DNA of 47,732 bases. Source: Mytilus edulis. Its lineage: Eukaryota. Made by a program: the position numbers and the translations under genes. The notes under the pieces were generated by a model that saw only the letters and a program-made list of their open reading frames with translations, did not search any database and was not told where the DNA came from. Location: assembly GCF_963676685.1 (NCBI RefSeq), contig NC_092353.1:20195575-20243306 (forward strand), in the 5' to 3' direction. Shown piece by piece: positions 30,384 to 31,960 of the stretch (position 1 is its first letter; every line of letters begins with the position of its first letter).

Positions 30384-30750
30384 ACACCACTGGATTGATT
30401 CCACTGCTGGTGGACGTTTCGTCCAAGAGGGTATCACCAGTCCAGTAGTCAGCACTTCGGTGTTGACATGAATATTAATTATACAGTCTTTTTCTTAATA
30501 AATTTCCTGTTGCAAAACTTTGAAAATTTTCAAAAAAACTAAGGATTTTCTTATCCCAGGAATAGATTACCTCGCCTTATTTGGCACAACTTTTTTGGAA
30601 TTTTGGGTCCTCAATGCTCTTCAACTTTGTACTTGTTTGGCTTCATAACTATTTTGATCTGAGCGTCACTGATGAGTCTTATGTAGACGAAACAAGCGTC
30701 TGGCGTACTAAATTATAATCCTGGTATCTTTGATAACTATTGGTACCTTT
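30384..30750 (+). repeat. Retrozyme or Penelope-LTR-like repeat unit that carries a hammerhead ribozyme
   Basis: The unit is delimited by the recurring end word tactaaattataatcctggtacctttgataactat at 30343-30383, 30706-30750 and 31920-31958. It contains the junction word ctcaatgctcttcaactttgtacttgtttggc. Confidence 0.55.
30661..30706 (+). ncRNA. Type I minimal hammerhead ribozyme motif, copy 1
   Basis: gagcgtcaCUGAUGAgucuuauguagacGAAAcaagcGUC^uggcgu. The core is complete (CUGAUGA, GAAA, GUC cleavage triplet). Helix II is gucu/agac (4 bp). Helix III is 2 bp (AC/GU) with an AAGC loop. Helix I is ~6 bp (uggcgu with gcguca). Confidence 0.6.
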
Positions 30751-31493
30751 TAAAACATTTAAACCCATTGCAATTGTTTGCACCAGTCCTAAGTCAGTAA
30801 TCTGATGTTCAGTAGTTGTCATTTGTTGATGTGGTTCATAAGTGATTCTCATTTTTATATAGATTAGACAGTTGGTTTTCCCGTTTGAATGGTTTTACAC
30901 TAGTTATTTTTGGGCCCCTTATTAGCTTGCAGTCCGGTATGAGCCAAGGCTCTGTGTTGGACTGTACTTTAACCTATAATGGTATACTTTTATAAATTGT
31001 GACTTGGTTGGAGAGTTGTCTCATTGGCACTCACACCACATCTTCTTATTTCTGTGAACAATTTTGTCATGATAATCCATTATACAAATTCAAATGACCT
31101 TTAATTGTTGGTTTAACTTATGGTCATAAAAATCTTTCACATTAGATCCAATCTATATGAGGACATTCCTTCTTATTTTCTACGTTATAAGAACTTTTGC
31201 ATTTGGTGTTCATAAATGTCTATCTTTTTCTTCAACTAACTATTTTTGAATACATTGTATCTCTTTCATATCTTCTGTCTGATATAAGCGATTTTCATCA
31301 GTTATATCACAGTTGCCTGCTTGCTTTGAGCTCAAAAGGTTGTTGGTTCAATCCCTATTCATATGTATATATATATTACATGTAATATTTGCTACTGGAT
31401 ACTCATTTTTTGATTGAATTGTATTGTTGGATTGCTGTTTCATTGACATTTCATGAAACTGACATACTGTGGGTATTGTTGTGTGTTTGTTTT

Positions 31494-31830
31494 TTCTACA
31501 TTAGCTGCTAGAGGATTAGGGGGAGGGTTAAGATCACACTTAACATGTGTAACCCTGACACATTTTTGCATGTGTCCAAAGTCATGAGTCATTGGCCTTT
31601 GTTAGTCTTGTATGTTTCTTGATTTAAGTTCATTTATATGTTTTGGAGTATGGTATAAAGTCCATTTTCACTTAACTAGTACACATTTTTGTTTAGGGGC
31701 CAGCTAGAGACTGCCTCCCATGAAGGTGTTTTTTCTCACTGTGTTGAAGACCCATTGGTGGCCTTTGGCTGTTTTCTGCTCATTGATTGGGTTGTTGTCT
31801 CTTTCACACATTCCCCATTTCCATTCTCAA
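31494..31830 (+). mobile_element. tRNA-derived SINE-like element, copy 2, fused at its 3' end to a hammerhead unit
   Basis: Related to 13393-13740. Its tail ...ccattctcaat runs directly into gctcttcaactttgtacttgtttggc. Confidence 0.5.
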
Positions 31831-31960
31831 TGCTCTTCAACTTTGTACTTGTTTGGCTTTATAAATATTTGGATATGAACGTCACTGATGAGTCTTATGT
31901 AGACGAAACACACGTCTGGCATATTAAATTATAATCCTGGTACCTTTGATAACTATATAC
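31826..31960 (+). repeat. Second hammerhead-bearing unit (3' part)
   Basis: ~85 percent identical to 30608-30750. Confidence 0.55.
31877..31922 (+). ncRNA. Type I minimal hammerhead ribozyme motif, copy 2
   Basis: gaacgucaCUGAUGAgucuuauguagacGAAAcacacGUC^uggcau. The core and helix II are the same as in copy 1. Helix III is AC/GU with an ACAC loop. Confidence 0.6.

Follow-up and report, generated by a model that had tools for sequence, protein, structure and literature searches.

The question raised by this locus is whether two closely similar hammerhead ribozyme (HHR) motifs in the genome of Mytilus edulis belong to a source of small circular RNA or are separate insertions of a mobile element. 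The motifs lie in a stretch of 47,732 nt (contig NC_092353.1 of assembly GCF_963676685.1, positions 20,195,575 to 20,243,306 of the forward strand), referred to here as the window; all coordinates below are positions in it. A first-pass annotation had described the motifs as intact ribozymes in tandemly related units of ~370 bp, spaced compatibly with the production of circular RNA.

Two type I hammerhead motifs

An exact 25-mer (CTGATGAGTCTTATGTAGACGAAAC) is present at two sites of the + strand of the window, 30669-30693 and 31885-31909, with no occurrence expected from 100 shuffles. Each site falls within a type I HHR matched by the Rfam model RF00163, namely, ribozyme A (30663-30706, + strand; predicted cleavage between 30700 and 30701) and ribozyme B (31879-31922, + strand; predicted cleavage between 31916 and 31917). 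The residues of the catalytic core (CUGAUGA, GAAA, and the cleavage triplet GUC) are at the model positions in both motifs. Helix II consists of 4 bp (GUCU/AGAC) with a UAUGU loop, and helix III of 2 bp (AC/GU) with the tetraloop AAGC in A and ACAC in B. Helix I is open and helices II and III are closed by loops, as in type I topology. The two motifs are accordingly present as first described, each with the core and the three helices. The term intact applies to the cores but not to the remainder of the motifs, since the consensus helix-III loop, GCGC, is lost from both and helix I of B contains a mismatch. Helix I had been given as 4 to 6 bp; this is correct for A, which forms six pairs (two of the six being G-U), whereas B forms four contiguous pairs followed by a C:A mismatch and one further pair. 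Alignment of 11 copies revealed that A and B deviate from the family consensus solely in the helix-III loop and in the distal part of helix I.

Assignment to the mussel retrozyme family

The unit containing ribozyme A (copy A; 30342-30700, + strand) is a complete unit of 359 nt that runs from U1.1 of TGGCAT, the nucleotide after the cleavage-site position, to GUC. It aligned over its whole length (400 aligned columns) with Mg353 at 75% identity. Mg353 is a cloned non-LTR retrozyme of Mytilus galloprovincialis that self-cleaves and is circularized via RtcB (PMC7229834). A further copy in the window, copy C (see below), displays 81% identity to Mg353, the alignments of A and C both covering ~390 to 400 columns. 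Metazoan non-LTR retrozymes have units of ~170 to 400 nt with a GC content below 45 to 50%; published mussel units are 350 to 390 bp in length with a GC content below 45%, and the mussel genome has been reported to hold about 5,000 such HHRs (PMC7229834). Unit A has the size and composition of a retrozyme, with 359 nt, a GC content of 37%, no LTR, PBS, or PPT, and no coding capacity, as no open reading frame of at least 110 amino acids was found in 30342-30744. The tandem organization of retrozymes, in which two ribozymes flank a monomer, is absent from the locus, where the members present are solo or truncated; elsewhere the family occurs in arrays, as contig L002 contains at least 2.3 units.

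The full-length alignment with a cleaving and circularizing element upholds the initial assignment to retrozymes. The accompanying suggestion that such ribozymes act as dimers does not apply, since the published mussel HHR, with the same 2-bp helix III and tetraloop, cleaves as a monomer. Its cleavage is cotranscriptional and proceeds at about 0.1 per min in vitro; dependence on dimers was reported for amphibian HHRs, and the mussel family is expressed as abundant circular RNA (PMC7229834). Copies A and B are thus very probably two independent, nontandem insertions belonging to the Mytilus-type non-LTR retrozymes of mussels, a known family with one type I HHR per unit. The retrozyme element itself is already known, and its presence is an ordinary find. 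Scans of sequence collections detected ribozyme copies in eight contigs from marine metagenomes and none in viral contigs or prokaryotic genomes.

Rfam scores and predicted folds

In a search of 1.9 kb, RF00163 matched ribozyme A with 24.8 bits (E = 0.0035, model positions 1-45) and ribozyme B with 31.5 bits (E = 2.2e-5, model matched end to end); the E value of B in the Rfam scan of the whole window was 5.5e-4. The covariance-model search that the first-pass annotation had named as a check therefore gave end-to-end matches for both motifs, but neither reached the gathering score of RF00163 (Hammerhead_1), which is 34 bits, and the Rfam scan at gathering level returned no match at all. Consensus-type copies with the GCGC loop, from contigs L002, L004, and L006, scored 33.0 to 33.3 bits, all below 34. 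The HHRs of L004 and L006, which are unrelated marine-metagenome contigs, are identical to that of Mg353 except for one base of loop 2 and scored 33.0 bits; HHR L002a, with one change in helix I instead of the loop-2 change, scored 33.3 bits. Because the consensus-type copies also fall below 34 bits, subthreshold scoring is a property of the family. We considered the null result at gathering level as potential counterevidence and dismissed it, since consensus-type copies of an active family narrowly miss the threshold too. In practice, standard Rfam scans will not flag this experimentally active mussel family, and annotators should be aware of the narrowly missed threshold.

Folding was computed for ribozyme regions of 56 and 96 nt and for the circular 359-nt unit. 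The hammerhead fold was absent from the minimum free energy (MFE) structures of A, B, the consensus-type copy of L004, and Mg353, and neither the ribozyme regions nor the circular unit were more stable than shuffled sequences (z scores of -0.8 to +1.3); since the motif is AT-rich and depends on tertiary structure, such folding is uninformative for it. The energy of the hammerhead fold itself was -6.7 kcal/mol for ribozyme A, the same as for Mg353, and only -0.6 kcal/mol for ribozyme B. No compensatory covariation was visible across the 11 ribozyme copies because these are nearly invariant. If the locus were transcribed by read-through, residual activity could lead to one cut each by A and perhaps B.

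Architecture of copies A and B

The ribozyme of copy A is followed by a repetition of unit positions 1-41 (30701-30741, + strand), recognized by comparison within the repeat family. Judging from the aligned sequences, insertions of the mussel retrozyme family canonically terminate with this redundancy at their 3' side. Copy A therefore comprises 1.1 units (30342-30741) with a single HHR, and a redundancy of 41 to 44 nt is its only terminal repeat. Unit positions ~22-48 are possibly repeated once more, imperfectly, at the end of copy A (tggtaccttttaaaacatttaaaccc; 30741-30767, + strand, 73 to 77% identity), which may represent a tail extension like those of Penelope-like elements (PLEs) or a product of slippage. 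Copy B (31826-31960, + strand) is a 5'-truncated fragment of ~135 nt containing the last ~90 nt of the unit, including the ribozyme, and then 44 nt past the cleavage site. The two copies share only 131 nt (30610-30740 versus 31826-31956), with 92% identity. The 3' end of copy B, GATAACTATATAC(TAT), is also found in the independent contig L006. No clear target-site duplication flanks A or B.

A conserved word of ~44 nt is present at 30342-30385, 30701-30744, and 31917-31960. Three occurrences had indeed been announced, but they are 86 to 93% identical rather than exact copies. The word had been placed at the end of each unit; it is located directly 3' of the cleavage site and is therefore the start of the unit. 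The second word lies 359 nt after the first, which replaces the proposed unit length of ~370 bp, and the third lies another 1,216 nt downstream. Tandem Repeats Finder (TRF) reported no ~360-nt array at the locus, and the units cannot be considered tandem, copy A being one unit with a redundancy of 41 to 44 nt and copy B a separate fragment. The flank upstream of copy A (5' of 30342) displays no similarity to the unit and contains no ribozyme. Since unit A has one HHR and no ribozyme is present upstream of its 5' edge, production of a 359-nt monomer by double cleavage is impossible here, and the proposed fit of the spacing with circular RNA production is lost.

We also considered A and B as parts of one array split by later insertions. 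This was rejected because A ends at the canonical 3' terminus of the family, unit positions ~45-269 are missing between the copies, and the extended end (..CTATATACTAT) is common to B and L006 but not to A.

Copies C and D on the opposite strand

Two further copies were found on the - strand. Copy C (14619-15001, 81% identity to Mg353) belongs to the Mg353-like subfamily, is 5' truncated at about unit position 22, and ends at the canonical 3' position. Its ribozyme is dead, with a broken helix II (GACU/AGAC) and a deletion of helix III and of the start of the next unit. The search for target-site duplications detected AAATATAA beside the 5' end of copy C and 11 nt past its 3' end. Copy D is interrupted by the insertion of a Naiad-type PLE between its two halves. 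The 5' half (13749-13911, - strand; unit positions ~105-268) matches 30446-30606 with 71% identity. In the 3' half (11977-12084, - strand), the ribozyme core is deleted, ..ctga being joined directly to aacgcgcgta.., and the canonical 3' terminus is retained (..ctttactatt).

A Naiad-type Penelope-like neighbor

The element inserted in copy D (12085-13748, + strand) is a 5'-truncated Naiad-type PLE consisting of a reverse transcriptase (RT) open reading frame and a 3' untranslated region (UTR), with a possible 4-bp target-site duplication (ACAT/ATGT). It has 6,207 homologues, and no HHR module follows its 3' end. The 3'-terminal ~365 nt of a second Naiad-type PLE (31465-31830, + strand; 75% identity to 13383-13740, E = 1e-62) are joined to copy B via the shared hexamer CTCAAT. 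Contig L009 matches 12088-13477 at 96.5% identity and stops before the 3' end; contig L010 contains a GIY-YIG-like motif upstream of the RT and ends without an HHR module. No Pfam family passed for the RT fragment or for its full-length relatives, and classification was based on the diagnostic motifs of Craig et al. (2021, PMC8557442). The full-length relatives contain an ADKA motif with a Cys located 8 residues downstream, and a DKA-type motif with a Cys at this distance is diagnostic of Naiads (PMC8557442). As judged by these motifs, the neighboring element is a Naiad-type PLE.

The sequence upstream of copy B had been read as a tRNA-derived SINE-like element. ARAGORN detected no tRNA in the window, Rfam gave no tRNA match at E values up to 10 in 30200-32100, and the region is homologous to the Naiad 3' UTR instead. 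A tRNA-derived SINE, such as an Sm-alpha-like element, was therefore rejected in favor of a Naiad 3' end.

Alternative readings of the locus

Chance matches to the motif, or a nonribozyme repeat resembling a hammerhead, would agree with scores below the Rfam gathering threshold, with MFE structures devoid of the hammerhead fold, and with the lack of covariation among copies. The probability of this explanation is negligible: both copies have every nucleotide of the core as well as the three helices, the 25-mer recurs beyond chance expectation, and a ribozyme of the same sequence but with GCGC as its loop self-cleaves at this site in vitro. It is also extremely unlikely that the locus is an active source, in which two HHRs in tandemly related units of ~370 nt excise a monomer that is then circularized, even though both catalytic cores are intact and on the same strand and the ~44-nt word is repeated at a distance of 359 nt. 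Each 359-nt interval contains one HHR, nothing of the unit or ribozyme precedes 30342, and TRF identified no array. The two HHRs are 1,216 nt apart, with unrelated repeats and a Naiad tail between them, and the A-to-B fragment of 1,216 nt is the only conceivable product. Finally, independent solo copies at other sites stop at the 3' position where copy A stops, which marks A as a complete insertion rather than a broken array.

The HHRs could alternatively be part of an autonomous PLE pseudo-LTR, copy B then representing a Naiad lineage whose 3' end carries a ribozyme of the retrozyme type. A Naiad 3' end does directly precede copy B, HHRs are typical of PLE pseudo-LTRs, and vertebrate retrozymes are related to such pseudo-LTRs. 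However, copy A has no PLE sequence or open reading frame next to it, the only PLE sequence beside copy B is a 365-nt Naiad 3' end, and both the element at 12085-13748 and L010 lack the module. In addition, Naiads were reported to lack canonical HHRs, and the 131 nt of copy B are no more than the 3' portion of a retrozyme unit. We consider this possibility very unlikely and retain the interpretation of A and B as independent retrozyme insertions.

Copy ends and mode of insertion

The 3' ends of seven solo copies measured by alignment (A and B of the window, one each in L001, L004, and L006, and two in L003) are located at unit positions 41-46, and the 3' ends of copies C and D agree by eye with this site. 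By contrast, the 5' ends vary in the window (unit positions 1, ~22, ~105, and ~270). A shared 3' end combined with variable 5' ends is the pattern expected when target-primed reverse transcription starts at a fixed point of the RNA. In the literature, PLE insertions display 5' truncation, partial tandems, and tails of 30 to 40 bp. In the published life cycle of the family, tandem copies are transcribed, the monomers are circularized by a host RtcB-type tRNA ligase, and an RT acting in trans, most probably from a PLE, returns the RNA to DNA (PMC7229834). The copies of the window would be products of the reverse transcription step and not a source locus. Copy A comprises 1.1 units and one ribozyme, copy B is truncated at its 5' side and joined to a Naiad 3' end, and copies C and D lie on the opposite strand with dead ribozymes. 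Neither A nor B can yield a 359-nt circle.

A Naiad may have acted as a helper of the retrozymes. Twice, a Naiad 3' end is joined to the retrozyme at an identical unit position, with microhomology of 7/8 nt. One copy starts exactly at the cleavage site, and the solo 3' ends are at one UA-rich site. Naiads lacking HHRs might thus mobilize mussel retrozymes, with target-primed reverse transcription starting at a fixed site of the HHR-processed RNA and the RT occasionally switching from one of the two RNA templates to the other, a proposal that we regard as speculative and rather improbable. If it were true, copy architecture would identify both the helper element and the RT start point for mussel retrozymes. 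The common 3' terminus of the solo copies, together with the junctions to Naiad ends, provides a testable hint as to which PLE mobilizes the retrozymes and from which point of the RNA. The (TA)n target preference of Naiad PLEs is also invoked in this mobilization proposal.

Comparison with known hammerhead-bearing elements

Cleavage, circularization, and the abundance of circular RNA were already published for the mussel family and are taken here from the literature, so that the locus adds little in these respects. The present analysis provides the motifs, their homology to Mg353, the architecture of the copies, and the identity of the Naiad; from these we infer the mode of insertion, the helper role of the Naiad, and the residual activity of the window copies. 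Mg353 (Cervera and de la Pena 2020, NAR 48:5054, PMC7229834) is of the same size class as unit A (353 versus 359 nt), and both have a low GC content. Its HHR does not differ from those of A and B in the core, in the stem of helix II, or in having a 2-bp helix III with a tetraloop, and the cleavage site is likewise GUC^UGGC; the helix-III loop is GCGC in Mg353 versus AAGC in A and ACAC in B. The family of Mg353 is tandem, whereas the window copies are solo or truncated.

Dispersed single units, as observed here, were also described for solo non-LTR retrozymes of vertebrates (Li, Clavereau, and Pollet 2026, bioRxiv 10.64898/2026.07.22.740005), which were interpreted as nonmobile offspring of active tandem retrozymes and linked to PLEs. 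That study covers vertebrates, a few insects, and one coral and relates retrozymes to HHR-bearing PLE pseudo-LTRs, whereas the adjacent PLE is here a Naiad. The HHRs of PLE pseudo-LTRs (Cervera and de la Pena 2014), amphibian satellite-2, and Schistosoma Sm-alpha resemble the mussel motifs in being of type I, in their very short helix III, and in residing in retroelement-derived repeats. According to PMC7229834, the ribozymes of PLEs and newts act as dimers and have a helix III of 1 bp with a palindromic loop, whereas the mussel type, with 2 bp and a tetraloop, cleaves as a monomer. The elements carrying PLE pseudo-LTR HHRs include an RT/endonuclease open reading frame, which the retrozyme element lacks, and Sm-alpha has a tRNA-like head, which neither ARAGORN nor Rfam detected here.

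The elements at 12085-13748 and 31465-31830 match the Naiad clade (Craig et al. 2021, PMC8557442) in the DKA motif followed by a Cys at a distance of 8 residues, in the N-terminal GIY-YIG of a relative, and in the abundance of 5'-truncated 3' ends; Naiads are dominant in bivalve genomes (PMC8557442). The Naiad is here a neighbor and candidate helper, not the ribozyme-carrying element itself. Within the retrozymes, the subfamily of A and B (..GATAACTAT..) is 25% diverged from the Mg353 clone, and the loop-2 variants UAUGU and UUUGU may match the two published HHR families.

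Identification of the hammerhead motifs

The 25-mer CTGATGAGTCTTATGTAGACGAAAC occurs at 30669-30693 and 31885-31909, both on the plus strand, with 0 occurrences expected by chance. Reading of the sequence in context located in both copies every part of a type I hammerhead ribozyme (HHR) listed by the first-pass annotation: the CUGAUGA, GAAA, and GUC elements of the core, a 4-bp helix II (GUCU/AGAC) with a UAUGU loop, and a 2-bp helix III (A15.1-U16.1 and C-G), closed by AAGC in HHR A (30663-30706) and by ACAC in HHR B (31879-31922). Helix I of HHR A is formed with the upstream strand by 6 pairs, 2 of which are G-U, and that of HHR B consists of 4 contiguous pairs, a C:A mismatch, and 1 pair. 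The predicted cleavage sites are 30700/30701 (A) and 31916/31917 (B).

The check proposed for these motifs, a search with Rfam model RF00163 (Hammerhead_1), gave end-to-end alignments for both HHRs, although neither reached the curated gathering score of 34 (24.8 bits and E = 0.0035 for A and 31.5 bits and E = 2.2e-5 for B in a 1.9-kb search; E = 5.5e-4 for B in a whole-window scan). Because both scores are below this threshold, a standard gathering-score scan of the window reported no hammerhead. The 25-mer, the presence of all core parts, and the RF00163 alignments indicate that the motifs are real.

The element is a known mussel retrozyme

Mg353 is a genomic retrozyme of Mytilus galloprovincialis that has been cloned and transcribed (Cervera & de la Pena 2020, supplementary material; PMC7229834). 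Once permuted to begin at its own cleavage site, Mg353 aligned over the whole unit with copy A (30342-30700, plus strand; 75% identity in 400 columns) and with copy C (14619-15001, minus strand; 81% identity). The ribozyme stretch reads ...GAGCGTCACTGATGAGTCTTTTGTAGACGAAACGCGCGTC/TGGCGT... in Mg353 versus ...GAGCGTCACTGATGAGTCTTATGTAGACGAAACAAGCGTC/TGGCGT... in copy A. The copy A unit, with 359 nt and a GC content of 37%, is within the ranges reported for mussel retrozymes (350 to 390 bp, GC <45%; PMC7229834). Mussel genomes are reported to contain ~5000 such hammerheads each, in two families distinguished by loops 1 and 2 (PMC7229834); loop 2 is UAUGU in the window copies versus UUUGU in Mg353. 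Together, the Mg353 alignment, matching ribozyme, unit size, and GC content indicate that the retrozyme interpretation was correct and that the element belongs to an already known family.

Ribozyme conservation and predicted folding

A search for the ribozyme core in public metagenome contigs identified retrozyme family members in eight marine contigs; the core was found in none of the scanned viral contigs and prokaryotic genomes. The ribozyme is almost invariant in 11 aligned copies, 7 of which have GCGC as the helix III loop, the consensus from which AAGC (A) and ACAC (B) deviate. The two G-to-A changes in the loop of copy B would be the product expected of CpG decay. The HHRs of contigs L004 and L006 are identical to the active Mg353 ribozyme save for one loop 2 base and scored 33.0 bits each with RF00163; that of one copy on L002, with one helix I change instead, scored 33.3 bits, likewise just below 34. 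Since such Mg353-like copies, all with the GCGC loop, score 33.0 to 33.3 bits, the gathering threshold misses the whole mussel retrozyme family, so that default Rfam annotation overlooks a family of ribozymes with demonstrated activity. The sub-threshold scores of HHRs A and B are no evidence against their hammerhead identity.

The energy of the hammerhead fold was -6.7 kcal/mol for A, the same as for Mg353; in B, the helix I mismatch leaves only -0.6 kcal/mol. Ribozyme B is predicted to be weaker than ribozyme A. Minimum free energy prediction recovered the hammerhead fold in neither A nor B, nor even in the active Mg353 clone, and the ribozyme regions, like the circular unit, were no more stable than shuffled sequence.

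Retrozyme copies are solo insertions rather than tandem units

The two HHRs had been assigned to tandem ~370-bp units with a spacing compatible with circular RNA production. Tandem Repeats Finder detected no array of ~360-nt period at the locus. Copy A is one unit with a single HHR, after which its first 41 to 44 nt recur (30701-30741/44; repeat family D4). Its left edge is sharp, family similarity beginning at 30342, which is the nucleotide following the cleavage site in the family, and the sequence upstream is unrelated to the retrozyme unit. Having this flank and one ribozyme, copy A thus cannot be cut twice to yield a 359-nt monomer. Copy B, on the plus strand, is a fragment, sharing with copy A only 131 nt (31826-31956 versus 30610-30740; 92% identity) plus a short end. 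HHRs A and B lie 1216 nt apart, and the stretch between them contains other repeats with further copies elsewhere in the window. The tandem organization and a spacing competent for circular RNA production were therefore not supported.

The two remaining copies are on the minus strand. Copy C, of an Mg353-like subfamily, has a dead hammerhead, with a broken helix II (GACU/AGAC) and a deleted helix III; it also displays a T-rich internal expansion at about 14700-14730. Copy D lacks the ribozyme core, and a 1.66-kb insertion separates its two halves (13749-13911 and 11977-12084).

Alignment of the sequence 3' of each cleavage site with tandem references provided the last unit position of solo copies: 41 and 44 for A and B in the window, 45 for L001, 42 and 46 for the two copies of L003, 41 for L004, and 44 for L006. 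Copies C and D, judged by eye, stop at the same place, and L002, where at least 2.3 units form a true array, continues past this point. The 5' ends of the window copies are variable (unit positions 1, ~22, ~105, and ~270). Target-primed reverse transcription characteristically leaves this pattern, a common 3' end with 5' truncation of variable extent. The pattern also shows A and B to be two independent and complete insertions, and the possibility that they are remnants of one array was rejected. Solo retrozyme monomers have already been described and read as immobile offspring (bioRxiv 10.64898/2026.07.22.740005).

Copy A starts at the exact cleavage position, which fits a hammerhead-cut linear RNA template. 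Such a start would, however, arise by coincidence in about 1% of copies, so that with several copies examined it is not a compelling argument. Directly after the 3' end of copy A, unit positions ~22-48 are repeated once more in imperfect form (30741-30767; tggtaccttttaaaacatttaaaccc; repeat family D5). Insertions of Penelope-like elements (PLEs) typically show partial tandems, 5' truncation, and terminal tails of 30 to 40 bp (PMC8557442), and the extra copy resembles these tail extensions.

Naiad-type sequences adjoin copies B and D

The insertion in copy D (12085-13748, plus strand) is a 5'-truncated element with a reverse transcriptase (RT) open reading frame (ORF; 12071-12763 and onward) and a 3' untranslated region, flanked by a possible 4-bp target site duplication (ACAT). 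The ORF has 6207 database homologues. Full-length relatives P0002 and P0007 contain an ADKA motif followed eight residues later by a cysteine, a combination diagnostic of the Naiad clade of PLEs (Craig et al., PMC8557442), and contig L010 shows the Naiad domain order, with a GIY-YIG-like motif (IIYLIT...QYVGET) upstream of the RT. Contig L009 matches 12088-13477 with 96.5% identity, showing the tail region and the RT ORF to be continuous with each other. These sequence features identify the element as a Naiad-type PLE. Homologue P0099 (51% identity to the Naiad RT) carries a hypothetical-protein annotation in a metagenome-assembled genome of 'Candidatus Thiodiazotropha'; it most likely stems from DNA of the bivalve host that was binned together with its symbiont.

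The region upstream of HHR B had been described as a tRNA-derived SINE-like element. The window contains no tRNA genes, and no tRNA-like sequence was detectable in this region, which is instead a Naiad 3' end: 31465-31830 (plus strand) matches the 3' end of the copy D insertion (13383-13740; 75% identity, E = 1e-62). Copy B thus consists of a Naiad 3' fragment and a retrozyme 3' fragment joined across the shared hexamer CTCAAT. In B (31826-31831) and D, the Naiad 3' end abuts one and the same position of the retrozyme (..tcct/caatgctc), in opposite relative orientations, and the Naiad terminus (ATTCTCAAT) matches the retrozyme site (GTCCTCAAT) at 7 of 8 nt. Naiads dominate in bivalve genomes, with many 5'-truncated 3' ends, and are reported without canonical hammerheads (PMC8557442). 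The start of copy A, the extra copy at 30741-30767, and the junctions hint that Naiads could act as the retrozyme helper, which we propose as a hypothesis because there are only two junctions.

Position of the window copies in the retrozyme cycle

In the published cycle, tandem copies are transcribed, the hammerhead cuts after GUC, the monomer is circularized by tRNA ligase, and a helper element reverse transcribes the RNA and integrates the copy (PMC7229834). The window copies are most likely end products of this cycle. In a read-through transcript, ribozyme A could still cut once, since its core and helices are predicted to be as stable as those of Mg353. Action as dimers, as previously suggested, was not supported: the hammerhead of Mg353 self-cleaves during transcription at a rate of about 0.1 per min (PMC7229834). 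RtcB ligase circularized the monomer obtained from a dimeric Mg353 construct (PMC7229834).

Other repeats and ORFs

The window, a eukaryotic sequence very probably of mussel origin, is 67% A+T and dense in repeats. Between the HHRs, 30846-31053 belongs to a dispersed repeat, a short interspersed element or MITE common in this genome, with copies at 10464-10577, 9766-9833, 29806-29860, 44890-44934, and 42737-42858, all on the minus strand. A 169-bp satellite (4.9 copies, 97% identity) within 32318-33726 is followed by a (CCGT)x21 microsatellite (33181-33266) and 2.7 more copies of a 168-bp variant. A ~126-135-bp repeat (GACCAACTTGAAAACTGGACC... consensus) within 23246-26271 and 40002-42112 forms arrays at 23483-24011, 25448-25836, 40002-41244 (9.8 copies), and 41735-42112, and 159-161-bp repeats form arrays at 24023-24455 and 25852-26271. 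A duplicate of the 23.2-24.5 kb block appears to lie about 1.8 kb downstream. ORFs 23480-23908 and 25343-25738, inside these repeat blocks, are probably not genes. Satellite-like units of 120 bp (34715-35475; 6.3 copies, overlapping ORF 34757-35233) and 169 bp (43931-44807; up to 3.3 copies, 93-96% identity) were also found. A hairpin at 2177-2258 scored 45 bits with the models of plant microRNA precursors MIR4380 and MIR8001, well short of the gathering scores (83-90). It adjoins a 27-bp tandem repeat (2481-2619) and is probably a repeat-derived inverted repeat. The minus-strand ORF series at 2484-8128 (137-320 aa), one member of which has a sub-threshold match to a Tesmin/TSO1-like CXC cysteine-rich domain (E = 6e-4, 20.5 bits versus a cutoff of 23.5), may represent one large gene, derived from a transposon or belonging to the host, that is interrupted by frameshifts or introns.
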